The position numbers and the translations under genes were made by a program. The notes under the pieces are model-generated. The model ran no database searches. It was not told the origin of the DNA and saw only the letters and a list, made by a program, of their open reading frames with translations. From Flaccisagitta enflata (Eukaryota), in the NCBI GenBank assembly GCA_965153355.1, contig OZ231126.1, positions 16,616,001 through 16,680,000 of the forward strand: a stretch of DNA of 64,000 bases. The letters are read 5' to 3'. This document shows, piece after piece, positions 11,588 to 40,900 of this stretch (position 1 is its first letter; each line of letters begins with the position of its first letter).

Positions 11588-13282
11588 CTCTCTCTCTTAG
11601 GGGGTGTGTGTCCCAACAAGGGGCCGCCATGGCGGCCCCGGCGGCCCCTTGCCATACGTCCCTGATGAATTGCTGCACTCGTCACATGTTAGGACTTTGA
11701 TTCCTGCCTTTTTAGACGAGCGATCGTGACTCAAGTGGTCTGTAGGTCGGTTGGTCCGTAGGTAGTGGCAGGTAAATAAAAATGACTATGTAAAACATAA
11801 TGTATAGATAAGAATAGGTAATTACAGGTTATTATTTTTCTCTCTGAGAGGTCATACGGATGATCTTCGATTTCCAATGGGCGTCATGAAAAATAAACAC
11901 CTCCATCCATCGCTTGCCAAACTGAGTTGACTACAAATTGGCCGTTTATTCGGCCTTGTTTCTTAATTGCTGTAAAATACGGAAGTGGATTTTTGAAAGA
12001 AAAGAGAAAATGGCGATGGCCCCTTGAATCATACTTTACTACCTAGGAAGTAATTTTTGCACCAAAAAAAGAAGCAGTTCATTTTATGATTTGATGTGTA
12101 CAAAGATATTTTCAAGCTATACAAAATACACGGTTAGACTTTCCTTTTGAGCAATTAGCACTTACATTCTTCAAGGCAATTGATCGTTACAAGGTTTTAA
12201 AGTGACACTTACCCAATTTCTCCCCTCCCCCATTAAAAGGTGCGGAAATAGGGAAAGATTAAACGAAAGAAACAAAAAAGAAAGTAATACTTATAAACAG
12301 AAGATTTTAAACTTTTGGTAGTTATAAAAGATAGTATTTGATCACTACAGCACTATTTCAACTAAATTATTCTACCATATCTACTCTCTGTGGGGTGGAA
12401 AATCAAGTGATTATCCAATTGGCCAAAAAAAAAAAATCAAAGACCAGGGGGTGAAAAAACCAAAAGCTATTTAACTTTATGCAGTGTATATTTTGCACCC
12501 CTTAAAATTTCACAACTTTTAAACAGGGGTGTATATAGTTGAGCAGCTTTTGATTTTATTCCCCCCCCCCTGCCTTTGATTTTCTTCCCCGCGACGCGTC
12601 GCGTCGTATTACAAAATGTTTGATTTTCTTCCCTCAAAGCTATAAACCAGTATATTTTAGGTTTAAATAGTGTTTAATTGTGTTGTAGTAATTGTATTTT
12701 ATGTTTTGGTACTGCCAAAAGTGTTAGATCTTCAAAAATTTTCTTTTTTCTTTTTTTCAAACTTTTGATTTTCTTCCCCATCTCCGAACCCTTTGATTTT
12801 ATTCCCCCCCACCGGGGGGGGGGAATACTCAACTTTATACACCCCTGCTTTTATAATACCGTGTTCCATTACATGCGTGAAGCGAAATTTTGGGTCACTC
12901 TCCTTCAAATTTAATAAGATTCCGCGAGACAGATTTTTAAATGGGCACAACTTACCGGGACCGGTGATATCCACAAACTCTTTGGCCGAAGCTTTGTAGA
13001 CCTCGATGTATCTTTGACCCATATGATGTTTGTGCCTCTTCACTGCCAAGTCCCTTTGTTGTGAGTTTTCCAATTTAACCAACGCTTCACCGTTTCTTCT
13101 ACCTTGCGAGCTCAAGCACAGGACGACGCCGCCCCTATAATGATCAAAACCAATTTAAAAAAAAGTTAATGTAAAACTACATGTATTTTTAAACGAAGGT
13201 CCTTAATTGAATGGACCGGTGTTTGGAAAACGCATGACCCCTAATTAACTCAATTAGCGATTGCTTAAGAAACGATAATGGA

Positions 13283-13347
<65 letters not shown>

Positions 13348-13677
13348 TAGACATACAGGCTGACTGATATTGTGAGAATGAGCGAGAGTGTCAAGCAGAG
13401 AAACAGAGACTGACAGTTCGACAGATTAACAATCAGACAGATGAACTGATGTACATAAAGGCAGGATAAACGGCTACCCTAGTCGCGTGCGGGTGGGCAG
13501 GGGCAGTGATGGAGAAGGTCACTGGGGCATTTGGGCAGGCGCAGTGAGCTCAAAACGCTCAAAACGCCGAAAAAGTAAAATGGGGACCGACCGACCAACC
13601 GACCGACCAACAGACCGACGGAAGGACGGGCAAAACGGGGTGTAGAGTCGACTAAAAATAGATAATCAGAAAGACAG

Positions 13678-13769
<92 letters not shown>

Positions 13770-15525
13770 GAGGATGGAGGCGCTAATTGAAGAATTATTC
13801 TTGAGTCGGTCCATTTATCAAGCTGTGTTTAGGACGTTGGCATTTTGGCCGACTAATTAAACTTTTATTGTTCAATTTTGTCACCAACTTTTATCATGAT
13901 GTTGAAAAATAAATTACGACATCGTGAATTCTTCCATTCCGTTTCATACAAGGTCAACAAATAGATTTAACATTGTCTATTAGACTTTTTACTGCTCTAG
14001 GAAAAGCGTATTTTCAAGGAGTGCCAGAGGGCAGGGAAGGGGCACAATATCTGTTAGGTGTTTTACCTCCATTTTCCTCTTTCATACTTCTTGTACTTCT
14101 TGTAGGATTGAAAAAAAAAAAAACATAAGATTTGTCTTATCTACAGGATGATAAAAAATTGAGTCCACTAGGGGCCCAAAAGGGTCTGATATGACGCTAA
14201 TTTACCAAACTTTAGTTTTTTTCCCCACCTCAGTCCAACCAAAATTATCCAACAGGTTCATTTTCACTATAATGGAACCTGTATCGTGATGTAGATAGAT
14301 GGCGATGAGAGCCCTTTGGCTTTGGCATTGGGTACCCAACCACTGGGAACCAGGGATCCCATATTGACCATTTATGTACTTTAAAAACTCCCTTCATTTA
14401 TGAAAATTAAGAAATTTAATGGATCTCATTTGATATATCCCTCAGAACAACCACAAAATGGGGAATACAGTTTTATCAAATGCGCAACTAACTAACAAAC
14501 CAACCGAGAGACAGACGCGACCTTAAATAGATATGAACAAATGAAAACTTTAAAAAGTCACATTAAAAACATTTGAGTGTCCTTTTTTAGTCGCGTGCAC
14601 GCGACTCTACACCTTGCTCTGTCGGTCGGTCCGTCCCTCCGTCCGTCCCTCCGTAACATTTTTAAAATTTTGATTGTTTTTTACGTTTTTTAACATTTTT
14701 TAACATTTTTTAACATTTTTTAACATTTTTTAACATTTTACCTTTTTTAACATTTTCAAGTTTTTTTTAACATTTTTTAGAATTTTTAACATTTTTCAAC
14801 TTTTTCAACTTTTTTTAACATTTTTTAACATATTTCAACATTCTTTAACAGTTTTTAACATATCTTAATATTCTTAACATTTAAACATGTTTTTGCTCTT
14901 TTGTTTTTCATTTCCAGACGCATGCGACTGTTGCCCTCTTGGGCTTGTTTTTCTTTTCTTCTTGTCGTGGCTTTCCCTAGCGCATAATGAAATGGCGCTG
15001 GCAATGTTCCGGATGCGTTTTTAGTCGCAGACACGCGACTCTACACCTTGCCGTGTCGGTCGTTAGGTCACATTTTTGAATTTCGAGCGGTTTCGGCATT
15101 ACAGCTTCAGCCCAACCGTCCGCGACTGGATTGCTGTGTTTCCGGCCTTGTTTTAGTTCATTTGAACCCGATTTGGTTTTCTGATATGATATTTTGATGT
15201 TCCATGACTTGGTCCGTCAATCCGTCCATCATTCTTGGCTTTTGACTTTTATTTGTTTTTCTTATTAGTAATGATATTATTAGTAATAATATTACCTTTC
15301 CACGTTGAGTCCACGAAAGAAGTTGGCGATATCTTGGTCCGTGCACTGCCAAGGTAATCCTCGAGCTCTCACAACGCAATTGTCATCCACCGGATCATCT
15401 TGGCTGAATCGATGTGAAGACGAACAATAGTAATTTTGAATACGTTTGGTTGCAACCTATATGTCTACATATTGTGTGTGCGTGTGCGTGTGTTCGTGTG
15501 CTCGTGTGCGTGTGCGTGTGTGTGT

Positions 15526-16532: not shown

Positions 16533-16542
16533 NNNNNNNNNN
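16533..16542. other. Assembly gap (10 N)
   Basis: N run; truncates Gypsy pol inside RNase H; sequence left of the gap is not pol-like. Confidence 0.99.
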
Positions 16543-18960
16543 CCGGCGCTGCGTTGACGTCAGCTTTTTCGATCCATAGCTGATGACTTTCTCCTTGCCG
16601 TCGACTTTCTGCGTGAGCACGTAGCCAATGGCAGATAGGGACGCGTCAGACTTGACGATGAATGGCTTGGAGAAATCAGGGTAGTTCATCACCTGATCGG
16701 ACGTCAGAATGCGCTTTAGAGTCTCGAAAGCTATTTGATGTTCGTCGTTCCAGACCCATTCCGCATCATCGTGCGTTAAGTCCGTTAAGGGCTGCGCGAT
16801 TTTGGAGTAGTCTTTGACGAATTGGCGATAGTAACCCGTTAAGCCAAGAAATGTCTTCAGCTTCTTGGAGTTGGTTGGCGGGTTCCAGGCTCTGATTTTG
16901 TCAATATTTGCAGGGTCTGGTGACATCCCGTCTTTCGACAGCAAATGCCCCAGGCAGACAACAGAGTCCTGTGCAATACTGCACTTCGCCGGATTAAGCT
17001 TGAGTCCAGCACGCTCAAGAGCTGTGAGGACTTGGTCGAGATAGAAGATGTGGTCTTCCATTGTGTTGGACGCGACGAGGATGTCGTCGAGATAACTAAG
17101 AACATGCTGCGGCGGAAGGCCTCGCAGCACGAGTTGCATGAGAGCGCAGAGGGTGCTTGGCGAATTTTTGGCACCCATTGGGGCAACCAAATATTCCAAG
17201 TGCATCGATTCCGTGGAAAATGCAAAGTACTTGCGATCCTCGGGATGCACCGGAATTTGCCAGAATCCTTTCGTCAAGTCGAGAGACGTAAAGAATTCTG
17301 GCTTGTCAAGCTTTTGCAAGGAGTCCTCGATCCGCGGGAGAGGGTACACTACCTTGTTGCACTGCTCGTTGATTTTGCGGAAGTCGGTTAAGAAGCGCCA
17401 GCCACCAAGTTTCTTTTTCGCCAGAAGGATGGGCGCCGAGAAGGGGCTGGTGCTGTGAGCGACCAAGCCATCGGCGATCATTTCGTAGGCTTGGTTATCG
17501 ATGACTTCGCGCATTTCAGGTCTTGTTCGGTAAGGAGGTACGTTGATTGGAGTCATGTCTCTATCCTTGAGATTGGCGCGGTAATGGATCAAGTGAGTTT
17601 TTCCATAGTCGCGGTCATGGCGAGAGAATGCTTTCGCATGATCAATCTCCAGAAATTGTTTGAGACGAGCTTTGTAGGGGAGAGCTCTTTTAGAAAGCTT
17701 TGTCCAATCCAATTTGAGCCTTTTTGCCCCAGGCGGGATACTCATATCCGGCGACGATGGGAGGTCAGGCTGCTGATTGGAGGGGGGAGCTGGAGGAGGA
17801 GCTGGAGGAGGATCGGGAGGAGGAGGATCTGTTGGAGGGGGGGTATCTTGAGGAGAGCAAGACGCAGCGGGACGCTTTGCCTGTGCTGAGGGGGGAGGGG
17901 GGTCACACACGATCTCCTCCAAGTCTTCGTCGTCATCGTCGTCAGCATTGGCGTTGAAATCGACGGCTTCACTATCAGCGCTGGGCGGGGCTTTAGCTTC
18001 TTCTGAAGGATCGGCTCCATAATGACAGAACATTTCGGTTCTGACTACGCGCGATGTCAAGTCGTCCTCGGTGTAGAACTTGGCGTAGCCGAGCACTCTG
18101 CCACGTTCCATTTTGATTGGATATTTATGAGCGTTGATGACTTCTGTTGGGAAGAGTCCATCTTTCACTATGCTGACGCATCGATTCGCCCACAATTCGC
18201 TGGATGCATTGTTGAATGGCTGGGTTTCGACAATGTTGGATATGCATTTTATGTCGTTGAGCATCGCTTCGACCTTGCACACCGTTTTGCTGTTTGCGGG
18301 CACCACGAAGTCTTCAAGGACCCTGTAGTAACATCCGCTGATTTCGGACGTGTCCTTGATGAGGGGGGTTGAATCGCCGTACCTTGGGAACTCTACAGTT
18401 CCTTTGTCAGGATCGAGAAAGGCACCACAGCTTGAGAACCAATCCCAGCCCAAGAAGATGTCTTGGACCAGTCCTCGAACCACACGAAAGTTTGTTGAAT
18501 GGAACCGTCCATTAATACGAAACGCAACATTCACGATCCCGAGGGTCATGACTTTGGATCCGTTGATGGCGGTGCCACGGGTGGTGAGGGGCCTGTAGGG
18601 ACGAGTTTGCAAGTGTGGAGATCGCAGGAAGAAATCTTCGGACATGGCGCTTTTCGTGCAGCCAGTGTCGCCAATGACGCGTTGTTGAATTCTACGCTTA
18701 TTCACCTTATTCACACGAATATGTACATAGAACTCGGCTTTATACCGAGGCTTCGGATCAGACGGGGGACCGCGGGAAGGTGGAGGTTTAGGAGGAGGAG
18801 ACGGAGAGGTATCGGGCGAGGAGTTGGGATTTTTGCGGGTTTTGCGGTTTTTGCGGGTTTTCGCGCGGGAAGGACGGCTATCTACAGGGCTATTTACATT
18901 CGGGGCCTCATTTTCAATTCCGACATCAACGGGCCCCGGGGCTGAGTCGGGTTCTAGTTT
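16543..18960 (-). CDS. pol: Gypsy Pol (protease, RT, N-terminal RNase H), predicted to be expressed by -1 frameshift; truncated by gap
   Basis: Frame open from the slippery site through IGDTGC (protease), PPYR...SPFSAPILL...WRFLTDFRKIN...YPLPRIED...LDLTKGFWQI...PMGAKNSP...YLDDILV (RT) and PFIVKSDAS (RNase H). Confidence 0.93.
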
Positions 18961-18963
18961 CCC
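18901..18963 (-). promoter_or_regulatory. -1 programmed ribosomal frameshift signal (G GGA AAC + H-type pseudoknot)
   Basis: Heptamer at 18963-18957 directly before the gag stop; 6-nt spacer; stem1 CCGACTCAGC/GTTGA(T)GTCGG; loop CGGGGCC can pair with downstream GGCCCCG; pol is in the -1 frame. Confidence 0.85.
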
Positions 18964-20237
18964 CGACCATAGCCCACGGCACCCTGAGACTCCTCTTCGT
19001 TGGAGTCCTCAGAGTCCTCGTCTGCGGTTTCAATGGCCCGGTATTGGTCGTTCCGATCGGGACGATCGTTCCGACCACGGTTGCCACTGTCGCGGGTATT
19101 GCGGCGGTCGTCGCGAGGCTGGCTACGCTGATCGTTGCGGTCATCGCCGCGTTGGTTCCCATTGTCGCGGCGGTCGTCGTTGCGACGGCCAGGTTGGTTG
19201 TTGCTGCGACGGTCATCATTGCGGCGGTCATCATTGTTGCGGCGCTCACCTCTGTTGTTGCTGTTGGAGCGCGAGTTGTTAGAGCCACGGGACCAGCTGC
19301 GGTTGTTGCGAGAGCCACCCTGGTTTTGGCGACCTTGGTTGTAGCCACTGTTGTTGTTGCGTCCACAATCACCCGACGGGTAGTTGGAGCGAGAATTACT
19401 TTGGTACCCACCACTTTGGCTCCCTTGGCGTTGAGCTCTTTCAAGTGCTTCAATGCGGTCCACCAAGCGGCGGTTGGAAACTGCCAGGTTCTCCAACTGG
19501 GTGGTGATTCCAGCCATCGCAGTTTCGAGGCTGGTAGCGCGATCCGGATGCAGACTGGCGCTGGCAAAGGCGACTCCTTGTGCTGGATCACCGTCGGTCG
19601 CTTCGCCATCGTCGTCGGCGGTGGATAGCTGGTAGCGGAGTGCGACCTCCTTTGCCATTTCCAGCGTACGATTGTTGGCCGGGCAACCCATGTCGATGAT
19701 TCGACGCATCGGCTTTTTGAAGGCGTTGCGGAAGCGGAAGAAGTACTCCCGCGTTTTGAACTCATCCGGCATCTCTTTGTCGTACCGGTTGACGGCTTGG
19801 ACAACACGAGCGGCCAGATTGTGGAACGACTCCTTGCCGTCCCACTTGATGGTGGTGTACTTAGCCTGCCACTTGTAGCGTTCTTGGGGATCAATGAAGA
19901 GCCCAATGAGTTCTTCCTTAAGATCGGGCCAGACCGTGCTCGTCGCTTGGAGGTAGGTCACGTAGGCTGAGGAATGCAGTTTCAGAGGTAGCCACTCCAA
20001 GAAGAGGCTGCGGAGAGTTGGAGTGTCACGCACGTTGGTGGCCAACTTAACTGCCTTTTCAAAAAGTTCCACCCATTGTTCGAAGTCATCTTGACTGGCG
20101 TTGAAATCCCGTACATTGATGCTTGATGCACCTCTTTCCAATCGTGACGGGAAGGCAGGGGCGGCTGCGGCGGCGGCCCTAAGGGGGTCGTTGGGATCCA
20201 TTGCATCATTAGCGCCGTTAGCACCTTGACCTAGCAT
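18954..20237 (-). CDS. gag: Gypsy Gag, 427 aa
   Basis: ATG in AAAATG context; capsid-like DFNASQDDFEQWVELFEKAV...WPDLKEELIGLF...ESFHNLAARV; basic RNDDRR-repeat C-terminus without a CCHC knuckle; directly upstream of pol. Confidence 0.85.
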   Translation of the reverse strand: MLGQGANGANDAMDPNDPLRAAAAAAPAFPSRLERGASSINVRDFNASQDDFEQWVELFEKAVKLATNVRDTPTLRSLFLEWLPLKLHSSAYVTYLQATSTVWPDLKEELIGLFIDPQERYKWQAKYTTIKWDGKESFHNLAARVVQAVNRYDKEMPDEFKTREYFFRFRNAFKKPMRRIIDMGCPANNRTLEMAKEVALRYQLSTADDDGEATDGDPAQGVAFASASLHPDRATSLETAMAGITTQLENLAVSNRRLVDRIEALERAQRQGSQSGGYQSNSRSNYPSGDCGRNNNSGYNQGRQNQGGSRNNRSWSRGSNNSRSNSNNRGERRNNDDRRNDDRRSNNQPGRRNDDRRDNGNQRGDDRNDQRSQPRDDRRNTRDSGNRGRNDRPDRNDQYRAIETADEDSEDSNEEESQGAVGYGRGN

Positions 20238-20388
20238 TTTGCTGTGTTGGATGTGCGAAAATTACAAAAGATTTCACCGAGGATATCACACAAACCGTTC
20301 GAATGAAAGGGGATCCAGACTGAGCTTGGGCCGTCTCAGTTACTGAATAATGGGGGGGGAAAAGGTTTGACAAAAATACTCGGCGGAT

Positions 20389-20700
20389 TTAAGCGAGGGA
20401 GAAGAGGCTACGCAAGCCACGTAGCGCGCTGTTGTCGGATTCCACAACGTAGTCACAGTAGTTAAGCAAATTCGAATTGGCTCGAACGGCGTATCTGAGA
20501 GCTCGCACTTCCAATTCAGTAGTAGACCACTGTTGACGCTGTTGCTGGGTTAGAGTTTTAGAACCAAACGAAACAATGCGTTCCTCTCCTTCGATTCTGG
20601 CGGTCAACACAAAGCTGAAGGCGGTGCGGGTGGTGTGAATTTTGACAATTACTGGGAAGGCACTGGGCATGGCCCTTGGGTTGATGTTTTGGCGTGACAT
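20389..20700 (-). CDS. Stand-alone RNase H-like ORF (103 aa from ATG), probably catalytically inactive, in the Gypsy leader
   Basis: PVIVKIHTTRTAFSFVLTARIEGEERIVSFGSKTLTQQQRQ aligns without gaps to Pol PFIVKSDASLSAIGYVLTQKVDGKEKVISYGSKKLTSTQRR (18/41 identical by hand count), then continues WSTTELE...VVESDNSAL. Confidence 0.75.
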   Translation of the reverse strand: MSRQNINPRAMPSAFPVIVKIHTTRTAFSFVLTARIEGEERIVSFGSKTLTQQQRQQWSTTELEVRALRYAVRANSNLLNYCDYVVESDNSALRGLRSLFSLA

Positions 20701-20852
20701 ATTGATGACGAAAGAGTCCGATTTAGATTTCACTATTCGATGTTACGAAACCAATTACACAAAAAGGCGGAAGGCTGTCGGGATAAAGACACACGCGGAA
20801 AGGCACAATGGTGATGCGTGGTTACAATGGCAAAGATTACTTACGACGTAGT

Positions 20853-20981
20853 TCACAGCCAGTTTTCCATCGCCATCTTCTTGGTTTCTTTGGACTTCTT
20901 CTTTTCGCCTTTTTCGTATGCAGCTTTGACGGCTTCTTTAAACGCTTTGCGCCATTCTTCGAAGTCGTCTTTTCCGTCCAT
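20853..20981 (-). CDS. 42-aa mini-Gag ORF (copy of capsid N-terminal helices) in the Gypsy leader
   Basis: Hand translation: MDGKDDFEEWRKAFKEAVKAAYEKGEKKKSKETKKMAMENWL*. DDFEEWRKAFKEAVKAA matches Gag DDFEQWVELFEKAVKLA (10/17); start context ACAATGG. Below the ORF-track length cutoff. Confidence 0.65.
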   Translation of the reverse strand: MDGKDDFEEWRKAFKEAVKAAYEKGEKKKSKETKKMAMENWL

Positions 20982-21793
20982 TGTTAATAAGCTGCCTTAC
21001 CTCTAGATTGCACTTGTGGAGGTATCGTGAATAGACGGAATTGTCGTGATAATTAGAAAAAGTGGGGTTTATGCGTCATTGAATAAGGGGGGGATCGTCA
21101 TAAAATGTCCGTAAGAACGGGTCGAATGAGAAGCTAAATTCTGTTAGAGAAAAACGTGGCTTTAAATGATGATACGGTATGCCAGTCTCATCGCCAAAAG
21201 AGAAAGAGGAAGAACAGATGGGTAGCAATTCCAAAGAGGGGGCTTACAGACCGTGGGCTGATCCGACTACTTCGGCCTGTCAGACACTGTCAACCTAGCA
21301 ACAATGCCCTTTCTCTTCGTCGGGAGAGCACTAAACAGCAGAAAGCAAGTCCAGACTGTGGAAAGCTGGGAAAGGGGGAGAGCCTAGGATCGAGGGGGGG
21401 GCAGTCCGTGAATGCAGAGGCAGGCTTACACACTCGAACTGGACATCTGCTGCCACGAACAATGAAGTTCCCAGATGTGCGCGACACAACCGAAGGGGGA
21501 GGAGGGGAAACTGGGATCAGAGGAATATGCGGGGGGAGTGGGACCACAACCACGTCACTTCCAACACAGTTTCCACACCAGCCTTCGGGACGAAAACTGG
21601 AGTGAAAGGAAGACTGTCCAAACAGCTGGGCAGAGGGGACCAAACGGGGGGTTGGGACAGCTGTTGAACACCCAAGTAGTGATCCTGCTGACAGCACCCT
21701 CAGAACCAATCTAAAGTTGAGACCGGCGGGGCAGTACCTACAAAGAGGGGTAGGGACTTACAGGATGGGGGGCCACTCAAGGGGTAAGAGAGG

Positions 21794-21803
21794 CGATGCA
21801 CCA
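21794..21803 (-). promoter_or_regulatory. Primer-binding site, probably tRNA-Gly(GCC)
   Basis: TGGTGCATCG one base after the LTR end; complementary to the ...CGATGCACCA 3' end I recall for arthropod tRNA-Gly(GCC). Confidence 0.6.
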
Positions 21804-21804
21804 A

Positions 21805-22176
21805 TATAAGTGGCTATTCTGGGAGGATTAGCAACTTACGTGAATGCATGAGTCCTTGGCATTCTGTATCATCGGCGGGCTTATCGTCATTAGTTCTATG
21901 CCCATGCTAGAGTCAATTCAGTATAAGTGTCTGTCATCTAGAGAGGCAAATAGAACAGGCTATGATTATATGCACGGACGATAGTTAGTATAGTTAGGAT
22001 GGATACTTAGTAGGATCATGCAGTTATTAGATTATCCGTATATCATTAAAGCCACTAATGCTAGGCTGAATCTATAACTGAAGATAGCAAAAGGGAATGA
22101 AGGCATGCAAAGTAATATGCGTGGCATGCTAAATAATATCAAGCGTGAATGATTAGAAGCATGAAAAGCCATTACA
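21805..22176 (-). repeat. 5' LTR (372 bp)
   Basis: Starts TGTAATGGC and ends GCCACTTATA (imperfect terminal inverted repeat), followed by the PBS; no second LTR is available for confirmation. Confidence 0.7.
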
Positions 22177-22227
22177 GGGAAGCAGCTAATAGCGGGATTA
22201 AGCATGCACAAAATGTACTCCTACACC

Positions 22228-22940
22228 ATCTTTCTGCCTTTCCATCTTTCTGCCTTTCCATCTTTCTGCCTTTCCATCTTTCTGCCTTTCTATAATTCTG
22301 CCTTTCTATCTTTCTGCCTTTCCATCTTTCTGCCTTTCCATCTTTCTGCCTTTCCATCTTTCTGCCTTTCTATCTTTCTGCCTTTCTATCTTTCTGCCTT
22401 TCTATCTTTCTGCCTTTCTATCTTTCTGTCTTTCTATCTTTCTGTCTTTCTATCTTTCTGTCTTTCTATCTTTCTGTCTTTCTATCTTTCTATCTGTCTT
22501 TCTATCTTTCTATCTGTCTTTCTATCTCTGCCTTTCTATCTTTCTGCCTTTCTATCTTTCTATCTTTCTGCCTTTCTATCTTTCTGCCTTTCTATCTTTC
22601 TGCCTTTCTATCTTTCTGCCTTTCTATCTTTCTGTCTTTCTTACTTTGTCCTTTAGTTTTTCAACTTTCATGCCATTCCATTTTTCTTCTGCCTTTTTAT
22701 TTTTCTGCCTTTTCCGCACATTTCTGCATCCCACATCCTTCTGCCTTTGTTTTTCTACCTTAATCTCTATTTCTATCTGCCTTTCTATCTATCTGCCTTT
22801 CTATCTGCCTTTCTATCTTTCTGCCTTTCTATCTTTCTGCCTTTCTATCTTTCTGCCTTTCTATCTTTCTGCCTTTTGTTTCTGTGATCAGCCTTTCTAT
22901 CGTTCTGCCTTTCTATCTTTCTGCCTATCTTCCTTTGTTC
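22228..22940. repeat. Pyrimidine-rich 16-bp tandem repeat (TTTCYATCTTTCTGCC)n
   Basis: Visible periodicity; produces spurious LSFCLSIFLPFY ORFs. Confidence 0.9.
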
Positions 22941-24820: not shown

Positions 24821-27800
24821 ATGCCTTCTTTGACGGGACCCTCGAAGAAGGAGAACGAACTGAAGGCGCATTTGGATGGAAATAAACTCGATTTGTCGCT
24901 TATGCAACACGATGCCATCACTCCCGCGCTCGTTCGGCAGATCGCCGCTCTTCCGAAAGGTGAATACGATTAGGAAGGTGGAAACTGCGTCGATTCACGC
25001 TCTCTGAATCTTTTCTTCAGGCCTGGCCCAGCCCTACCTGCTTTTCGCCTTCCATGGGAATTACACAATTTTTTCATTTTCTTGTCAATTTTCCATCCTA
25101 TTCAATGGGTATCCTTTATTTTTTCATTATTTGCATTTGTATTTGTCAATTTCCCATTATATTCAATGGGAATTCCACATTTTTTTTTCACTTTCTCGTC
25201 AATTTTCCATATTTATCCAATGGGGATTACAATTTTTTTCCATTTTTTTGTCAATTTTCCATGCTGTTCAATGGAAATTGTTGAAATCCTCGTTTTTTGT
25301 CGATTTTCCATGAAATTGAGCTTGATTACGATGAAAACGAGGAGAATGAAAGGAAGGGAAGGGAAGAAGAAAAACAGGACTCGGGAGGCTCCGACCATGA
25401 AAAGGAGGAGGAAACCGGGGAAGAGGAGGAAACTGGGGAAGAGGAGGAGGAGGAGGAACCGGCGGAACCGGCGACCGACGGGAAAAAGAAAAAGAAGAAC
25501 AGGAGGCGAAACCAGGAGAGACAAAGGAAGAAAGAAAAAGAGGGGAAACAGAAAGAGAAAAGGGTCGATGAGATGGAAATGGGGGCCGAAGACCCAACGA
25601 GACCGGCTAATCGGTCTCCTGGAAGGCATGAGTCCCTCCAGTTTCTGGCGAGACACCGAGCGGAGGTCCAGAGGAGAAAGGGATGGACGGAGGAAGAAAT
25701 TGAGGAGGATCGAAAGAAAAGGGAAGAGGAGGAAAGGATAGAGGACGATAGGAGAGAGAAAGAGGCGAAAAAGGAGAGAAGAAAAGATAGAAAGAAAAAG
25801 GAGGAAGAAGAAAAAATGGCAGAACAAGAAAGAAGAGAAAGAGAAGCATATGAGATGCTTGCAGAAAAGAAAAAGGAAATATGGGAAAAGAGAACCCAGA
25901 GCAGACAGGAAGTGGCGAATCTTGAACGCGAATTGGAACAATGCAAAAAAAATGCGTGGGAGACTAGGCACCGCGGCAATGAGATGAGACGGCCTTGGTC
26001 CTCCTCCCCAAAACCGTCGTCATGGGAACAACGCGAGAGAGGTAACAACAACAACAACAACCACGACAGTGTCCATCGTGGCGGCACCCATCATGGCGGC
26101 AAAACCAACCATGGCGGCAACACCTACAGTGGCGGCAACACCTACAGTGGCGGCAACACCTACAGTGGCGGCAACACCTTTCGTGGCGGCAACACCTTTC
26201 GTGGCGGCAACACCTTTCGTGGCGGCAACACCTTTCGTGGTGGCAACACCTACCGCGGTGGCAACACCTACCGCGGCGGCGGCGGTCCTCTCCGTGGCGG
26301 CACCGCGCCGCATCACCGTTCATCACTCTCGATCGAAGAAACTCAGAGCCAGAGACACCGGTCCCGTTCGCCAACTAGAGACTTTCATGGGCCACTCAAT
26401 CAACAACAAAACTCCGGAAGAGGCCGCTCCTCACGCCAGGAACGACACCAAAACGAGCGGCAACAACCTTTCCAACAACGCGATGATCGGCATCAGCAGC
26501 AGCAGCAACAGCAACAGCAAGAAGCGACGGGGACATCGATGGCGCAAGAAATGCGCCAATTCATGGCGGAAATACGGGACGCCTTGGGAACTAGGCGTCA
26601 AGAAGGACAAACAAGGAAGGAGTGAATTTAATTTCGGAGGATGTAACTGTGAATGGGACTGTCCTTTCGTTTGGGGCGGAAATACGAACTGATGTGATGG
26701 TTTAGTTCTTGGGAAGTAGATGTAGCAATTGTTTGTCTCCAAGTCAACAGGCGATTCGCCTTACTTTATTGGAGTACTTGAATTTGAATTTGAATTTATT
26801 CAATGGTGCAATGGTGCTCTCACATCCAATTGGGAAAAACTTCCCCCTGTGTTCTACAGGGCATCTACCCCTTCGGGGCCGCTGCCCTATTAACCATCAC
26901 CCACATAGACGAGCATACAAAGCAGGGCAACGGGTATCGCTGACCTCATATTGCTCTAGGGCGACTGGTTACTTTTCGGCGTTTTTGAGCTTTTTGGGCA
27001 GCGGCCCCAAAGGGCCGATGTCCTGTAGGACACAGGGCACACTGTCTCGAGCGGTTCTTATATAGCGAAAAAAAGGCAGTATTTTTCTCATTGAATACAA
27101 CCATTGAACAGTGTCAATACAAGTGTTCTTGAAAATTGACAAAATGCAAACTTCCCATTGAATGATATGAAAAATTAACGGAAAAGCGAAAAATGTATGT
27201 TTCTTATTGAATAACATGGAAAATTGATGAAAACTGAAAATAATGTTGAATTCCTATTGAATAATATGGCAAATTGACAAGAAATGAAAAACAAGGCCAA
27301 GAGATGTCCAATAGATGCGTCCTCTTTAGAAGTACGATATTATCATATAAATTACCAAGATATTACGATATAAAGATTCAGAGATAAAGAGAGAAAATAT
27401 TAACTGATTCCTCTCTCCCCTCCCCACCCCCCCCCCCCACAGAAATAAGAGATATAAGAGACATATTGGAGAAATAAGAGACATATAGGAGACAAAAGAG
27501 ACAAAAGAGATGAAAGATACAAAAGAAATATAAGAGACATGAAGAGAAATATAGAGAAAACCTTAAAAATCGCGTTTTAAAATTTTCGCGTTCCGGACAT
27601 TCAGACAGACAGACAGACATTCAGACAGACCAAGGGACACACCCTCTTATAGAGATGCGAGGACGCATTTAAAAAACAAAGTTGCCATTGAATATTATGG
27701 ATAACTGCTCAGGACGTATGGAAATTTACCCCGTGTCCTACAGGACATCGGCCCTTTGGGGCCGCTACTCTGCTCTTACTCCACTTCTTTTGCTAATCTC

Positions 27801-30800
27801 TCCAAGCAGGGCATCGGGATGACTTGTTGAACCTACTGCTCCCGCCAAAATGCTCAAGTGACCTTCTCCAGCACTGCTCCTGCCCACCCGCACGCGACTT
27901 GGGTAGCCGTTTATCTGGCCTTTCCCTTCCATCCTATCAACCTATCTATCTTTCTTCCTCTTCCTACCTCCTTCCTCTTCCTTCCTCCCTTCCTCCCTTT
28001 CACTCCCTCCACCCTTACCTTACCAGAAACTTGCTTTCTTCCCCCCCCCCCTTTTGTTTCACTCGCCTCCTCTTTTCAGTTTTCACCCTCTTCCATCTTT
28101 CGTTTAACTCTTTACTTCACTTTATTTCCTTTTTAAGTGCGTCCTCGCACTTCTAAAAGAGGTCATGTCCGTCGGTCGGTCGGTTGGTTGGTTGGTTGGT
28201 TGGTCGGTCGGTCGGTCAGACAAACGTTTGAAATGCGCAAAATGGCTGATTCTGACGTATTTCTTCATTCCTATCACCTTTCATGCCTTACCACATTCAT
28301 ATTCATTCATTCATTCGTTCATATATTCATTCATTCATCAAAAACGTTCATTCACAAAATCTTACACTCAATAAAGGCCTTCAAAAGGCCTTAAAACTGT
28401 CTGAAATTCTTAAGAACTATCATCTAGGATGTCTTGGCTACCTAAAACAACATCAGACTAAATCATTTGAATGCAAAATTTAGATAAAAGTAGGTAAACG
28501 CCCTAATTCTTTGAGGCGCAAAAATGTCGCTAGAGAGTAGAAAAACGGAATGGAACCATTTTGGATCTTCCCTTGCAAAGCTCCGAAAACGGTTAAAAAT
28601 GTTTATATGAACCAAGGAAAGTATGATTCTGAATGCTGACGACACGAGCTATCGATTGGTGTAAGTTTTGAAAGCCAACTATGAGAACAAGATATTGTTT
28701 TTCCTCTTTTCTTGCTTTCCTGACTTGTTACGGCGATATGCGAATATGAACTTTGATGCATATGGGCTCAATAGATGCAGTTTTGTTTTTTCTTTCAAAT
28801 GAGACCTTTCCGAAACTTGAGATCAGCCCCACGCGGCCTCACGAATGATATTAAGAAGACTCTATCTGCTCGATTTTCCGTAGTTTTCTTTCGCGATGTT
28901 TGGTTAACCGCATAAGCTACTTCACTTCACATGAATGAAATAATCAACTGTGCGGTTCCGTCTGTAGACTCGCGATTCCGTCAGTAGACTCGCGATTCCG
29001 TCTGTAGACTCGCGATTCCATCTGTAGACTCGCAATTCCGTCTGTAGACTCGCGATTCCATCTGTAGACTCGCGATTCCGTCTGTAGACTCGCAATTCCG
29101 TCTGTAGACTCGCAATTCCGTCTGTAGACTCGCGATTCCGTCTGTAGACTCGGGATTCCGTCTGTAGACTCGCGATTCCGTCTGTAGACTCGCGATTCCA
29201 TCTGTAGACTCGCGATTCCGTCTGTAGACTCGCGATTCCATCTGTAGACTCGCGATTCCGTCTGTAGACTCGCGATTCCATCTGTAGACTTGCCATTCTG
29301 TCTGTAGACCTGCCATTCTGTCTGTAGACTCGCGAGTCCATCTGTAGACTCGCGATTCCGTCTGTAGACTCGCAATTCCGTCTGTAGACTTGCGATTCTG
29401 TCTGTAGACTCGCAATTCCGTCTGTAGACTCGCGATTCCGTCTGTAGATTCGTCATTCCGTCTGAAGGCTCACCATTCCGTCTGTAGACTCGCGATTCCG
29501 TCTGTAGACTCACGATTCCATCTGTACACTCGCGATTCTGTCTGTAGACTCGCGATTCCATCTGTAGACTCGCGATTCCGTCTGTAGACTTGCGATTCCA
29601 TCTGTAGACTCGCGATTACGTATGTAGACTCGCGATTACGTCTGTAGACTCTTGATTACATCTGTAGACTCTTGATTCCGTCTGTAGACTCGCGATTCCG
29701 TCTGTAGACTCGCGATTCCATCTGTAGACTCGCCATTCCGTCTGTAGACTCGCCATTCCGTCTGTAGACTTGCCATTCCGTCTGTAGACTCGCCATTCTG
29801 TCTGTAGACTCGCGAGTCCATCTGTAGACTCGCGAGTCCATCTGTAGACTCGCGATTCCGTCTGTAGATTCGTCATTCCGTCTGAAGGCTCGCCATTCCG
29901 TCTGTAGACTCGCCATTCTGTCTGTAGATTCGTCATTCCATCTGTAGACTCGCCATTACGTCTGTAGATTTGTCTCTCCGTCTGTAGACTCGCCACTCCG
30001 TCTGTAGACTCGCAATTCCGTCTGTAGACTCGCAATTCCGTCTGTAGACTCGCGATTCTGTCTGTAGACTCGCGATTCTGTCTGTAGACTCGCGTTCCGT
30101 CTGTAGACTCGTGTTCCGTCTGTAGACTTGCGATTCCGTCTGTAGACTCGCGATTCGGTGCATAGATTCGGGATTCCGTGCATAGAATCGCGATTCCATC
30201 TGTAGACTCGCGATTCCGTCTGTAGACTCGCGATTCTGTCTGTAGACTCGCGGTTTTTTGTTGTTTTCATAAGTACATACAACATGCGTGGTAGGTTCTT
30301 GGCACTTTTTAAGCATTTTTGACCATTTTTATAAGTATTTCAAGGGACCAACTGCGTAAAACAAAGGTGCCAAAAATCTTGCTAATTTCTCCCCTTAAAA
30401 ATTCATGAAATCAACATGGTCAATTTTGTTTTTTTGGGCCAAAAATGTCTGAAACCTTCAAAAACCCCACCCCAGAGACACTTTCGGGTGAAAAAGAGCC
30501 ATGAATGGTAACTGACATGAATTTGGAAGAATTAGGCCTTATACCTAATAAAAGTCATTTTTTTGGCAAAAATCAAGTATTTTTTAGCATATTTGGCATT
30601 TTTTCTGTTCACATAGCTTCCAAAACTTTAGAAAATACCTGAAACGTGTAGGGATACCTAATATACAACTGCTTTTACCATTTTAAGCTAGTTTTGGTTA
30701 ATATTTTAAAGATAAGAGCAAAAAAATAGCAAAAAAACAGCAAATTAAGCTGTTTTTTAATATTTTTTCTGCCTTAAAATTGTTCTAGCTATTTTAAAAA

Positions 30801-37921: not shown

Positions 37922-40900
37922 ATGAAGCGCGCGTCTAATACCAACGGCATCGATATAGCGGACTTTCTGGCGTCACGAGTCGCCCTCCAGCGTCAGATCA
38001 TGGCGTCATCGAACACTTCCGCCGCTACTCCGCCGTTGGGAGTGATCAGAGCCGATGAGGAACCGGCGGAGAAAATGAGACGCATGGAAGAGGCTCTTGT
38101 GCAAAAGAGAAGGTAAGGCGTTGTTGCGCAGTTTGCGTGAGCGCTATACAAATAACCTGATGATATACGACAAAGGGCGTAATTGTAATTTTATCCTTGC
38201 ACAGCGCTAATGGAGGAGACTCCAACACGATAGAGCTATCCGCGGAAGAAGCGATTGCGCTTGGAATGATTCAGGGACCCGTCGGCGTCAGCAAACGCCA
38301 AACTGACGATGCGCTTATCATTCCTGGTTAGTATATAATGAACTTCATTGATTCGATTGATGTCGTGGACAGTTTCTGTCCTTGGAAAAGAGCAGCTGAT
38401 TGACTGTGGAAAAAAACAAAATTGACGTCTTTCTTTTAGATAACACCTACACCGTCGAGGATGTTTCAGAAAACCTTATCATTCAGCATATGGATATCGG
38501 GGAACCTCTCAACACATTAAGAGCTCTGCTCGCCCAGGTAAGAACAAATTAGATGTTGTATTTTCATGAAGGAAATGAATAAGGCCAAGTTAAGGCCAAC
38601 AAGTGCGCCTCGCTTGATTAAGACTTTGTGAATGAACATTTTTAATGAATGGATGAATGAATGAATGAATGAATGAATGAATGAATGAATGAAAGAAAAT
38701 GAATGTGGCAAGGCATAAAAGGTGATAGGTATGAAGAAATTCGTCAGAATCAGCCGTTTTGCGCATTTCAAACGATTGTGTTACCGACCAACCAACCGAC
38801 CGATCAACTAACCGACCAACCTATAGAAGTGCGTATAGAACTAAGAAGTGCGAGGACGCACTTTAAAAGTTTTTGTTTTCCAAATATTTTCTCATTTTCG
38901 TCTCCCTTTTGATCCTTCTTCACGCAGAGACTTCACGTCAATTTGGATCACTACGAGTTTTGGTTGCAAAATCAGCAGATCCTAGATCCGGACAAGAATC
39001 TCGTCGAGCAATGTGTCCAAGTAAGTCGTCACTCGTCAGTGTGTGATGTTTCAAAAGAGGGGGCATCCACTCTCAAGTTCTCGCTCACACAATGCTGTTC
39101 CATGCGCAGGGTGAAGGAACGGTTCAGGTGAACTGCGAAGTCGGCGAGTATCCCGGCGCATCAACCCCTCGAATTAACATCGTGGACATTCTAAAACCTG
39201 CCGAAGAAGTGACTCCGGATATGCTGCCGCCGCGTCCGCAGCTGCAGAATGACCGCGAGCGGTTGTTCGAACAAGATGTGGAAACGGAGGAAGAAAAGGA
39301 GGAAGAAGTGACGAGATGGGTCGTTGATCAGCATTTTCGGAAGGAGCAAGAAAGATTGGGGATTCCTCTGGGTAAGAACCTACTGCTCATAATTTTTGCT
39401 TGATATCCATGAATTTACCGATTTTCGACTTGATACATTCTCCTTGTTCTACAGATCCGCGCCACTGGACTCCCTTTCACGTCGCTCACTGGATACGATG
39501 GGCCATCGGCAAGTTCCGTCTCCATAGCGTCGACGCCAACGAGTGGATCCACATTACGGGTCAAGACATCGTGGACATGTCCCACGAGATGTTCGCCGCC
39601 CTCGTCCCAGATGATAAGGTGATTGACGAATGTTTATTGTTGAACGAACTTTTGGGTGCTTCCACTTTTGGATACTTAGGGACTTCATTTGTATCTCAAG
39701 ATGTTCCTCATTGGATTGACATTCACTCACCGCCCTTATCTAGGACGACGTATTCTGGACTCATTTGGAGCTCTTGCGCAAGTGCAAGTTTGTCGCCATC
39801 GTTCAAACGCAGCCGAAGAACGCCCCGACGAGGTCGACGCCGTCTTCGAAACCTTCCTCTCAGAACTGTTCAGGTGTGATATTCTTACTGTAGTTGTTCA
39901 CTCATTTGCTTAATTTGAGGCTTGCAGTTGCTCTGTGATCATATGATGAATTGCGGTTTATTATTTATAGGCCGTGTTATTACAGGTAGTAGGCCTAAAT
40001 TGTCACATCATTGATTTGAATTTCCACAGTGAGCGTCCGTTCATTGGGCTCTGCTCGTCCTCCTTCCTACCGTGGTGATTCTCCCGTCCACGTTTCTCCG
40101 GCCGCCTTTAGCAATATCTCTTCTCCTGGCACGCACAACATTAACTTTAACAACAACAGCAGTAACAATAACAACAACCATATCAACAATCGTCCTCGTT
40201 CACCTCATCGCGCGTCTGGTTTCGAAACTCGCCTTCCTTCTGCGTCTGGCCCGGTTTCAGCAGGGGCAGCCTCGGCCAAAAATGCTAATAATGGACAAAT
40301 TCAGTTGTGGCAATTTCTATTGGAACTTTTGACCGACTACTCTTGTAGGTTAGTAACTAGATTGAAACGTCAGATGCTTTGAGCTCGTCTTCCCTGATGC
40401 CCAATTGTTTCGTTTATCGTGCCCTTTTTGCCCTCTTTTCGTGCCTCATCTTTTTGGTTGCGGACACGTAAAGTTCTGTGTAAAAGGCATTGTCGGTACG
40501 TTGGTCCATTCGTCGGTCCGTCCATGATTATCGAATGGAAAAGTATAAACTCGCTATGATGATGCAGAACTTGATGTTCCACCCGTTTGCAACGATAATG
40601 TGACCCCGCGTCACTTGCCTCGATGTTTTTTGTCGCTTGCCAAGCGACTCTATAAGAGGGTGTGTCCGCAAGTAGGAAGGTATGACGGTAACGCGGAGTT
40701 TTTTTACGACGCGGTATCTACTGAAATTGTGATTTCTAGCCAGCTTTTTTTCTGTCTCTTCTTTTATTCTGTCTCCTCTTTTTTTCTGTTTTTTTTTTCT
40801 TTTCTTTTTTTTCGTCTCTCTTTTTTTTTCTGTCTTCTTTTTTTCTGCCTATTCTTTTATCTGTCTTTTCTTTTTTTGTCCTCGACGATCAGTTTACGTC

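Follow-up and report, generated by a model that had tools for sequence, protein, structure and literature searches.

Organization of the element

The window, i.e. the whole 64-kb stretch of DNA analysed here, contains on its minus strand the 5′ portion of an LTR retrotransposon of the Ty3/gypsy type, a member of a multi-copy family in this marine animal. The element reads in the order LTR, leader, gag, and then protease, reverse transcriptase and RNase H in the −1 frame. Its features, in window coordinates, are:

21100 to 22226, minus strand: candidate 5′ LTR, placed by the satellite boundary and by depth in DNA runs
20853 to 20981, minus strand: mini-Gag open reading frame (ORF) of 42 amino acids, with its ATG at 20981 and its stop at 20855–20853
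20389 to 20700, minus strand: RNase H-like ORF of 103 amino acids; a second in-frame ATG at 20670 would give 93 amino acids
18954 to 20237, minus strand: gag, an ORF of 427 amino acids with its ATG at 20237
18957 to 18963, minus strand: heptamer GGGAAAC in the gag/pol overlap, with pol in the −1 frame
16543 to 19008, minus strand: pol, encoding protease, reverse transcriptase and the first ~45 residues of RNase H
16533 to 16542, no strand: run of 10 N (scaffold gap) that cuts pol inside RNase H and ends the element

The candidate 5′ LTR begins with TGTAGG directly past a 16-bp satellite whose end lies at 22228, and its 3′ end is uncertain (about 21100–21290). In three DNA runs the word depth of 21103–22227 is about 2–3 times that of the leader. 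The sole TATAA (21970–21966) lies inside the candidate LTR together with four further GTAAG motifs, and possible starts of a primer binding site (TGG) are found at 21233, 21196 and 21184. Self-comparison of the 64-kb window displays no second copy of the element and no second (3′) LTR, so the boundaries of the 5′ LTR are putative; a tRNA gene for comparison with the primer binding site was not found within the window.

The gag product has neither a Pfam match nor a CCHC knuckle, and its C-terminal tail is rich in R, N and D. The heptamer in the gag/pol overlap suggests that pol may be expressed by −1 frameshifting at this site. Protease (GDTGC, read directly) and reverse transcriptase (YLDDIL) motifs are present in pol, with Pfam scores of 1.9e-32 for RVT_1, 8.6e-21 for RT_RNaseH_2 and 1.1e-9 for RT_RNaseH, while Asp_protease_2 (4.2e-4) falls under the Pfam cut-off. 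An aspartic protease precedes the reverse transcriptase and an RT_RNaseH-type RNase H comes immediately after it, as is characteristic of Ty3/gypsy elements. Sequence past the gap of 10 N is not element-like, and the region after RNase H, where integrase would be positioned, therefore lies outside the visible element. The window also encodes GABP-alpha, SAM_PNT, Ets and ribophorin II domains of animal-type genes; the ribophorin II gene lies at 53576–57196, and an hnRNP-like gene at 15456–12735. In a protein atlas, a ribophorin II exon scored 0.81–0.84, no better than chance.

All 30 depth bins of the element, leader included, are covered in three DNA runs, which yielded 270, 479 and 96 contigs on the element, distributed across identity classes of at least 99%, 95–99% and 90–95%. 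Contigs from other samples bridge 19891–20707 and 20684–21018. A Gag query against JGI metagenome contigs and viral contigs returned 99 and 5 pattern matches, respectively, none of which was confirmed, and a degenerate DNA pattern for the invariant core of the RNase H-like ORF had 0 matches in either collection.

The RNase H-like open reading frame

The original prediction had called the second leader ORF RNase H-like, a label that is borne out by the present data: the 103 amino acids form an RT_RNaseH domain (Pfam PF17917, 1.9e-10) and align with the RNase H of the element's own Pol at 44% identity (E = 1e-10). Nineteen further versions of this ORF were retrieved, 15 at 90–100% and 4 at 66–68% identity, all of which are open and share the same terminal residues. 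The position of the first catalytic Asp is occupied by His in 18 of these and by Tyr in the remaining one. A profile search of 1.84 billion representatives yielded 90 matches. Stand-alone ORFs of 78–104 amino acids account for four of the five best of these, and further ones follow; wherever the position of the first Asp is covered they carry His or Tyr, whereas nearly all of the Pol matches inspected carry D-A-S there. One stand-alone protein, P0025 (56% identity), begins with M-x-R-Q-N, as does the window ORF when read from the ATG at 20700.

In a tree of 42 rows, 12 short ORFs form one clade (support 100/100) on a long stem, and this clade is nested in a group (99/99) with the Pol RNase H of the same lineage. 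Hence, the short RNase H-like ORFs share a single origin; the distant ones (P0026–28, P0032, P0045) are represented by proteins only, and the placement upstream of gag is seen for the window copy alone.

In the alignment of family members (A3), all 12 members that cover the position have His or Tyr in place of the first Asp. The Glu and the second Asp (corresponding to E54 and D79) are retained, and the ORF stops before the last Asp, leaving two of the four residues of the D-E-D-D catalytic set absent. Judging from these residues, the encoded protein cannot be catalytic, because the first Asp has been exchanged for His or Tyr and the last one is missing. The predicted structure (pLDDT 86, pTM 0.74) comprises strands at residues 7–13, 17–26 and 29–39, a helix at 50–64 and a strand at 74–78, corresponding to beta1–3, helix A and beta4, and is modelled as a truncated RNase H fold. 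The top fold matches are reverse transcriptase/RNase H chains of CaMV, MoMLV, foamy virus and Ty3 (8r0s, 4mh8, 7o24, 4ol8), with TM scores on the query of 0.57–0.66 and with E ≤ 0.001 for the first only. The ORF has no hydrophobic segment.

The mini-Gag open reading frame

The first leader ORF starts at an ATG in strong context (A at −3, G at +4) and had been named mini-Gag in the original prediction. Its homology to Gag holds up in alignments of 18–36 amino acids: the window copy displays 56% identity over 18 amino acids (E = 7e-5), and its variant P0023 aligns with Gag over 36 amino acids (E = 4.6e-6). By these alignments, mini-Gag is a partial copy of Gag residues ~49–84, and it is the counterpart of the first helices of the Gag core. 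Five variants of 39–67 amino acids were found (64–91% identity), in which the N-terminal core is kept while the C-termini and stops vary. Direct reading displays a highly charged protein without a hydrophobic segment.

In one variant (P0020), the protein tail would fit retention of GTAAGT but is no proof of it. A tblastn comparison of 12 variant proteins with the element gave colinear matches only and no junction-like variant; the odd tail of P0024 matched nowhere in the element.

The leader of ~750 nt is not junk. Its two small ORFs originated when parts of the element's own genes were duplicated, and they have since been retained as conserved features of the family. The variant proteins stem from a database of called ORFs, in which broken copies cannot appear. 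This ascertainment bias inflates the apparent conservation among close copies, and the argument therefore rests on the deep divergence (36–59% identity) and on the fold.

Splice-like motifs in the leader

The original prediction had described a layout of two donors and two acceptors by which unspliced RNA would present mini-Gag, splicing to the first acceptor the RNase H-like ORF, and splicing to the second one Gag-Pol. The motifs, together with the best further acceptor-like site of the leader, are:

20995 to 21000, minus strand: donor-like GTAAGG preceded by gag, first G at 21000, 19 nt before the mini-Gag ATG
20839 to 20844, minus strand: donor-like GTAAGT, 9 nt past the mini-Gag stop
20733 to 20737, minus strand: named acceptor AATAG, 33 nt before the ATG at 20700, with 11/20 pyrimidines
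20242 to 20250, minus strand: named acceptor CCAACACAG, 4 nt before the gag ATG at 20237, with 12/20 pyrimidines
20343 to 20364, minus strand: best acceptor-like site of the leader, CTTTTCCCCCCCCATTATTC followed by AG, with 18/20 pyrimidines and CAG

All four motifs and the three ATGs of this layout lie exactly where they had been placed, but the two named acceptors are no better than chance. The segment 20669–20238 is free of ATG, so that any of its 22 AGs would present Gag, and the 3 AGs in 20869–20701 are each equally able to present the RNase H-like ORF. At the named acceptors the pyrimidine content is 11–12/20, compared with 13–18/20 at seven acceptors inferred for ribophorin II, a neighbouring gene. 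Two better acceptor-like sites exist in the leader. The one at 20343 lies in the spacer between the stop of the RNase H-like ORF and the gag ATG, 106 nt before the latter, and in a copy from run X1 its C run is two bases longer (place 20351). The other one, at 20775 (13/20 pyrimidines, CAG), lies 75 nt before the ATG at 20700. The host splice sites used for comparison were derived from Pfam-guided exon boundaries; the donors among them are loosely defined, with any of A, G, C or T after GT, and both donor-like motifs of the leader match them. The host introns carry long microsatellites.

The donor-like motifs fare better. Of the 6 GTs in 21200–20982, the GTAAGG at 21000 alone resembles the consensus. 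Among 5000 dinucleotide shuffles of 21200–20701, 2.5% had a GTAAG within 50 nt before the first ATG and 1.5% had one within 24 nt past the mini-Gag stop; just 0.06% had both, which argues against random placement. GTAAG is also enriched throughout the 1.4 kb of LTR and leader at the 5′ end (6 observed, 0.96 expected, P = 0.0005), with zero occurrences in the 4.3 kb of gag-pol. Hence, the two sites are part of a broader pattern and do not constitute a specific pair.

Among 40 differences listed of the 286 between copies, none falls in 21000–20995, 20844–20839 or 20250–20242, and one, at 20736, alters AATAG while its AG is kept. A contig from run X1 that leaves the stretch at 20989 was considered as a splice junction and rejected, as the break lies 11 nt past the donor and not at it. 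We read this contig as a diverged subfamily; its loose letters resemble, by eye, a diverged mini-Gag start.

Of 12.16 million reads taken from the organism's polyA RNA run X23, about 6% of its total, none mapped to the 5.7 kb of 16543–22227, which is too little to judge expression or splicing. Metatranscriptome runs X17–X19 contain next to none of the words of the stretch, and a run search listed no RNA run as containing it.

AUG content and proposed translation of the leader

The leader cistrons are separated by spacers of 152 nt and 151 nt. Before gag, a stretch of about 430 nt (20667–20238) contains 0 ATG compared with 4.4 in shuffles (P = 0.0045), a value obtained for one copy only and for a stretch chosen after the data had been seen. 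Over 741 nt, 5 ATGs are observed compared with 9.2 in shuffles (P = 0.056). No depletion of ATG is seen in gag, in pol, in the LTR or on the antisense strand. Avoidance of AUG is not a family-wide property, because 8 of 13 RNase H-like members in alignment A3 have an internal in-frame Met.

Based on this dataset, we prefer polycistronic translation of unspliced RNA over splicing of the leader, and assign to it a probability of roughly 0.45. The full-length unspliced RNA would then be a three-cistron message. Ribosomes would translate the short mini-Gag ORF from its strong AUG and resume scanning. Reinitiation, which would be needed because the first AUG stands in strong context, would follow at the RNase H-like ORF 152–182 nt further on or, past its moderate-context AUGs, at gag, which would be reached through the 430-nt stretch without AUG. 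Reinitiation after an ORF of 93–103 codons is normally inefficient, and Gag would therefore depend on ribosomes that skip these two moderate-context AUGs. We infer that the small ORFs are translated by such a combination of reinitiation and leaky scanning. The GTAAG motifs may act as U1-binding sites that suppress premature 3′-end formation, or as occasional donors; a role in U1 binding appears more likely than that of donors of an obligatory switch. Suppression of 5′ LTR polyadenylation by U1 snRNP at the major splice donor is described in the available part of one report (PMC3694450).

The preference for unspliced polycistronic RNA is founded on the closest precedent, the MDG1 group of Ty3/gypsy elements of Drosophila (412, mdg1, Stalker, Blood, Tabor), in which two small ORFs, sORF1 and sORF2, precede gag. 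According to the accessible part of the preprint (bioRxiv 10.1101/2025.03.14.642691), the full-length transcripts are unspliced, peptides of both sORFs and of Gag were found, and the sORFs are conserved, with a low dN/dS cited. The sORF1 of ~110 amino acids is predicted to form a helix-turn-helix, and the sORF2 of ~70 amino acids is a membrane protein that resembles the FAST family, small viral proteins of cell fusion (bioRxiv 10.1101/2025.03.14.642691). Small ORFs before gag have only recently been shown to matter, with one MDG1 sORF mediating spread from cell to cell, as stated in the same part of that preprint (bioRxiv 10.1101/2025.03.14.642691).

Like the MDG1 group, the element studied here is an animal element of the Ty3/gypsy type that carries a pair of conserved small ORFs in sense orientation ahead of gag, downstream of the 5′ LTR. 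In contrast to that group, its ORFs are derived from its own genes and come small-then-large, a charged Gag fragment of 42 amino acids followed by a truncated RNase H fold; a FAST-like sORF2 is absent, as neither leader ORF has a hydrophobic segment. The comparison covers the layout and the small ORFs, and the element is not classed as a member of the group.

A second precedent for the scanning route is rice tungro bacilliform virus, for which leaky scanning across 900 nt of ORFs that contain no internal AUG is described in the part of the source available (PMC5902531). Like the element, the virus has serial ORFs on one reverse-transcribed RNA. Its upstream ORFs are free of internal AUGs over hundreds of nt, which lets ribosomes arrive at the main ORF, and the window copy of the element likewise has an AUG-free stretch before gag. 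The virus differs in being a plant DNA pararetrovirus that, as far as this part of the source goes, uses a shunt and a non-AUG first start, whereas the AUG-free stretch of the element is shorter (430 nt) and is not common in-frame to all relatives.

Alternative explanations

In a corrected form of the splicing proposal, a donor at 21000 (or 20844) would be joined to an acceptor before gag, so that the small ORFs are removed, the gag AUG becomes the first AUG of a long ORF, and the unspliced RNA remains as message for the small ORFs and as genome. The site at 20343 would be a more plausible acceptor than the one at 20242, since with 18/20 pyrimidines and CAG it equals the best inferred host acceptor; combined with the GTAAGG 19 nt before the first ORF, the sole consensus-like donor in the 220 nt upstream of that ORF, it fits a leader intron. 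Intron sizes of 502–759 nt lie inside the inferred host range of ~108–890 nt, and the joint placement of both GTAAGs in 0.06% of shuffles also speaks for this explanation. On the other hand, no joined or intron-less form of the leader was found among the DNA contigs of the three runs, which are short and from which rare forms are lost; the named acceptors are weak and only one choice of many; and GTAAG need not mark a used donor, because it is enriched through the whole LTR and leader. The AUG poverty of the would-be intron would also go unexplained, being needless if the intron were always spliced out.

The placement of GTAAGG 19 nt before the first ORF is that of a retroviral major splice donor, and retroviral Gag is also made from unspliced RNA. 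Spliced RNAs are described for BARE, a copia-type element of barley, in which splicing favours a Gag-only message from a single ORF (PMC3735527), and for Cer1, a gypsy-type element of C. elegans, in which the spliced RNA encodes a different protein and the unspliced 8-kb RNA encodes Gag and Pol (PMC3315495). With BARE, Cer1 and retroviruses, the proposal shares the idea of separate RNA pools for translation and packaging and a donor between the PBS region and gag, as far as the available parts of these sources go. However, the spliced RNAs of BARE and Cer1 as described there do not remove upstream ORFs in order to expose gag, and in the accessible portion of the preprint the MDG1-group elements of like layout are unspliced. 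Within the retroelement literature available in part, no case was found where gag becomes accessible only once an intron of the leader has been spliced out. Splicing of the leader appears unlikely, and a splicing-dependent Gag would be notable only if junctions were found.

Gag might also be reached without scanning of the leader, if the 151-nt spacer contained an IRES or a transcription start of its own, or if spliced-leader trans-splicing at 20343 or 20775 divided the RNA into separate messages. In accordance with this, each downstream ORF has a strong, unpaired acceptor-like site a comparable distance ahead of it (75 nt and 106 nt), Cer1 RNA was found with an SL1 leader (available part of PMC3315495), and retro-elements that use an IRES or a shunt typically have long leaders laden with upstream ORFs (available part of PMC5902531). 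Nothing in this analysis points to trans-splicing in this animal, an IRES or internal start has no support from structure or promoter analysis, and the AUG poverty favours scanning, which together make this route quite improbable.

That the leader ORFs are untranslated remnants, now decaying, of an ancient recombination with a deleted relative, and the four motifs chance, would agree with their being fragments of element genes, with the loss of two of four catalytic residues, with the variable C-termini and stops of mini-Gag and with a database confined to open ORFs, but is very doubtful given that RNase H-like ORFs at 36–59% identity keep their length, their start, the fold-defining residues and the exchange of Asp to His or Tyr, form one well-supported clade with long internal branches, and suffice as a 13-sequence alignment for a confident fold, whereas neutral decay over such a distance would have closed the frame.

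Possible functions of the leader proteins

A further hypothesis can be put forward tentatively, with the odds somewhat against it. In a lineage of Ty3/gypsy-type elements of marine animals, the pseudo-RNase H and the one-helix mini-Gag would be accessory proteins encoded by the leader, with the pseudo-RNase H acting in trans on replication, while reinitiation or splicing in the leader would control how much of the small proteins and of Gag is made. If so, the pseudo-RNase H may be a binder of RNA/DNA hybrids that does not cut, a partner of reverse transcriptase that would fill in trans the role which the connection domain of retroviruses has in cis, or a dominant-negative inhibitor that limits copy number. 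Pieces of gag and RNase H that were recycled and kept through deep divergence represent a testable case of a new gene made from an element's own parts, and a natural half-RNase H that is predicted to be catalytically dead offers a function that can be assayed. For annotation, it follows that leader ORFs of this kind should not be taken for nested fragments or pseudogenes.

Degenerate RNase H domains are known from Pol, namely the tether or connection domain of retroviruses and the gRNH of plant Tat elements, and Tat/Ogre elements may have extra ORFs upstream of gag (available parts of PMC4408406 and PMC7264820). The leader protein resembles the tether/connection domain and gRNH in that the RNase H fold is kept (as predicted) without the catalytic residues, and MoMLV reverse transcriptase is among its fold matches. 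It differs in that the dead RNase H of retroviruses and Tat is a domain within Pol, whereas that of the present element is a separate, truncated ORF of the leader; the extra ORFs of Tat, as far as described in those parts, encode plant mobile domain or transposase-28 proteins and not RNase H.

Leader ORFs and their origin

The real content of the leader region, the stretch between the 5' LTR and gag, is a conserved three-ORF architecture in which both small ORFs are recycled, one from gag and one from RNase H. Accessory ORFs upstream of gag are a known kind of system, of which the present element is a variant. Motif positions and start codons of the original prediction are all exact in minus-strand reading, and its ORF labels (Gag-like and RT_RNaseH) are correct.

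Features of the leader (window coordinates)
starts 21000, minus: donor-like motif gag/GTAAGG, 19 nt upstream of the mini-Gag ATG
ATG 20981, stop 20855-20853, minus: mini-Gag ORF, 42 codons
20844-20839, minus: donor-like motif GTAAGT
ends 20733, minus: acceptor-like motif AATAG, upstream of the RNase H-like ATG at 20700
ATG 20700, second in-frame ATG 20670, minus: RNase H-like ORF, 103 codons
ends 20242, minus: acceptor-like motif CCAACACAG, 4 nt upstream of the gag ATG
ATG 20237, minus: gag ORF, 427 codons

Mini-Gag (42 aa) matches Gag residues 49-66 with 56% identity (E=7e-5), and its variant P0023 extends the match to 36 residues, up to a common '...WL' end (E=4.6e-6). Judged by these alignments, mini-Gag is a piece of the element's own gag. 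Its five variants (64-91% identity, 39-67 aa) have the first ~27 residues in common and differ at their ends.

The 103-aa ORF matches RT_RNaseH (PF17917) over profile positions 5-86 of 105 (1.9e-10) and shares 44% identity with the beginning of Pol RNase H of the same element (E=1e-10); on sequence grounds it is a piece of the element's own RNase H gene. S-D-A-S of Pol is aligned to I-H-T-T in the leader ORF, the D of the Pol D-A-S motif being generally recognized as the first catalytic Asp. The last catalytic Asp is missing, as the leader ORF stops ~10 residues past the second.

Among 5.8 billion clustered proteins, two clusters of the RNase H-like ORF were found, from which 19 members were read (15 of the 16 listed in one, 4/4 in the other). 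Identity is 90-100% in the first cluster and 66-68% in the second; members have 93, 103 or 121 aa, the same last five residues, and His at the catalytic-Asp position (Tyr in one). The position upstream of gag is demonstrated for the window copy only. A profile search of all 1.84 billion representatives gave 90 matches at E<=0.001. The top four, together with P0032 and P0045, are free-standing ORFs with lengths of 78-104 aa, and His or Tyr occupies the Asp position wherever they cover it. Pol proteins rank next, with D-A-S in nearly all of those read, and the nearest of these plainly belong to the element's own lineage. The relative P0025 (56% identity) starts with M-P-R-Q-N and the window ORF with M-S-R-Q-N, hence the start codon at 20700 is ancient.

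A 42-row tree was calculated by maximum likelihood from 12 short ORFs together with 30 Pol segments, the best ones spanning the domain in proteins of >=180 aa. The short ORFs group as a single clade (100/100) with a long stem, nested in a 99/99 group that also contains Pol RNase H from this lineage. For the 93-aa form, a 13-row alignment gave a confident predicted fold (pLDDT 86, pTM 0.74), in which three strands are followed by helix A and one more strand. Structurally, this model comes closest to the RT/RNase H chains from CaMV, MoMLV, foamy virus and Ty3, with E<=0.001 only for the first.

The nearest architecture is that of the Drosophila MDG1 group, whose small proteins are unrelated in kind to the leader ORFs: one is predicted to be a helix-turn-helix, the other is a FAST-like membrane protein (bioRxiv 10.1101/2025.03.14.642691). 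Dead RNase H folds are known inside Pol (the retroviral tether and Tat gRNH), and Tat elements have extra ORFs upstream of gag (PMC4408406; PMC7264820). In literature outside subscription journals, searches for an ORF of RNase H type ahead of gag returned only these two papers.

Possible routes of expression of the leader ORFs

We favour, tentatively and with a probability of roughly 45%, that the leader ORFs and gag are expressed from unspliced RNA. The 741 nt from the mini-Gag ATG to gag contain 5 ATGs vs 9.2 expected (P=0.056): two in frame inside mini-Gag, the two RNase H-like starts, and one opening a 5-codon ORF. The last 430 nt before gag, a stretch picked after the fact, have 0 vs 4.4 expected (P=0.0045). 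Such depletion is absent from gag, pol, LTR and the antisense strand. Around the mini-Gag AUG, position -3 is A and +4 is G; the three starts that follow lie in moderate contexts, and the spacers between the leader ORFs and to gag measure 152 and 151 nt. AUG-poor leader, start contexts and spacers together give the layout expected for a mechanism in which reinitiation after the short mini-Gag ORF would be followed by leaky scanning towards gag. Against this reading stand the post hoc choice of the 430-nt stretch and an internal Met in 8/13 relatives of the RNase H-like ORF. In rice tungro bacilliform virus, leaky scanning was shown over 900 nt without internal AUGs (PMC5902531).

Removal of a leader intron before gag, as in the proposed switch between mini-Gag, RNase H-like ORF and Gag-Pol, appears unlikely. 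Spliced retrotransposon RNAs are described for BARE, as a Gag-only subgenomic RNA (PMC3735527), and for Cer1, where the spliced RNA codes a different protein and the unspliced RNA Gag and Pol (PMC3315495). As host reference, seven ribophorin II introns were inferred from Pfam-guided exon ends, taking the best pyrimidine tract in two that allowed several frame-keeping choices. The inferred donors are loose (GTAGGG, GTCTGC, GTAGGC, GTTTGT, GTGAGT, GTAAGC, GTGGGT), acceptors show 13-18 pyrimidines among the 20 nt preceding TAG, CAG or AAG, and introns span ~108-890 nt. By this standard both leader GTAAG sites are fine donors; in shuffles, their placement arises in 2.5% and 1.5% singly and 0.06% jointly. 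The sense strand of 22226-20835 holds 6 GTAAG vs 0.96 expected (P=0.0005), on the minus strand at 21839, 21761, 21429, 21247, 21000 and 20844, all downstream of the only TATAA of the region (21970); the antisense strand of 20835-22226 has two, and gag-pol none.

The acceptors proposed at 20242 and 20733 are not credible as specified, with 12 and 11 pyrimidines of 20 and many AGs around them (22 from the last ATG ahead of gag to the gag start codon, 3 before the RNase H-like ATG). Higher counts occur at CTTTTCCCCCCCCATTATTCAG (20343; 18) and at a CAG (20775; 13). The acceptor motifs carry no information. No leader joint was found among the DNA contigs, the five joints listed all lying in gag or LTR, although this counts for little given how short the contigs are; nor does any variant protein map discontinuously onto the element. 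A polyA RNA run of the organism placed 0 of 12.16 million reads on the element, without bearing on splicing either way. By analogy with HIV-1 and foamy viruses, where U1 snRNP at the major splice donor suppresses 5' LTR polyadenylation (PMC3694450), the donor-like motifs could serve such a non-splicing role.

Other routes to Gag expression seem slightly less probable still than a leader intron. Least likely, the leader ORFs would be non-functional relics. Protein databases contain called ORFs only, so that decayed copies could not show up; selection is argued from relatives that have diverged deeply and yet retain length, start, fold and the common Asp replacement.

Element body, LTR and copies

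18954-19008, minus: gag/pol overlap, 55 nt, pol in -1 frame
18963-18957, minus: GGGAAAC heptamer, directly 5' of the gag stop
16533-16542: scaffold gap of 10 N, where the pol frame stops inside RNase H

The open frame 3' of gag carries RVT_1 (1.9e-32) and the beginning of RT_RNaseH_2 (8.6e-21; Pfam), as well as a protease motif. The heptamer, the -1 frame and the overlap make a programmed -1 frameshift from gag to pol likely. Gag has a C-terminal tail rich in R/N/D, and its 427-codon ORF lacks a CCHC zinc knuckle. Past the gap the sequence is unrelated and not element-like, hence the assembly lacks integrase and 3' LTR here; self-comparison found no second LTR or element copy in the 64-kb window.

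A 16-bp satellite ends at 22228, followed by TGTAGG as candidate LTR start. The satellite (22228-22930) comprises ~44 copies with an 8-bp sub-period and directly adjoins this start. In three DNA runs, 21103-22227 has 2-3x the leader depth, as an LTR should show, and is read as candidate LTR, its 3' end being approximate only. The sense strand of the element part present in the window contains no AATAAA/ATTAAA.

The element stretch is present in sequencing runs from marine metagenomes and from one organism. Contigs matching 5.7 kb of it numbered 270, 479 and 96 in three DNA runs, two from that organism and one from a marine metagenome. They fall into the >=99%, 95-99% and 90-95% identity classes, with 30/30 depth bins covered, so the element belongs to a multi-copy family with diverged members, leader included. 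Other samples contribute contigs over 19891-20707 (5 differences, 5 gaps) and 20684-21018 (24 differences, 6 gaps), and perfect-match contigs cover 20412-20700 and 20799-20973. One metagenome contig (run X1) tracks LTR and leader to 20989 and then diverges, with letters that by eye resemble a diverged mini-Gag start; this suggests a further subfamily that may also keep the ORF.

Neighbourhood

Exons of GABP-alpha/SAM_PNT/Ets and ribophorin II genes lie near the element and mark the host as an animal. A LINE-type element (43676-47532, minus) has a 1097-aa ORF with an endonuclease/exonuclease/phosphatase domain and RVT_1, preceded by a 337-aa ORF without Pfam match. It is probably intronic, as it is flanked by the SAM_PNT (~39376-39876) and Ets (~48872-49453) exons of the GABP-alpha/ETS-like gene (plus strand). 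At 28925-30339 (minus), overlapping ORFs with weak repetitive matches (phage ALC, DUF6545) look like low-complexity artefacts, and a 446-aa ORF at 25285-26622 (plus) has no Pfam match. RRM-like exon pieces of an hnRNP F/H-like gene were recognized by eye at 12735-15456 (minus; no Pfam match at E<=0.001), and its introns are densely packed with repeats of 10 bp and of the (GA)n, (TC)n and (AGAC)n types.
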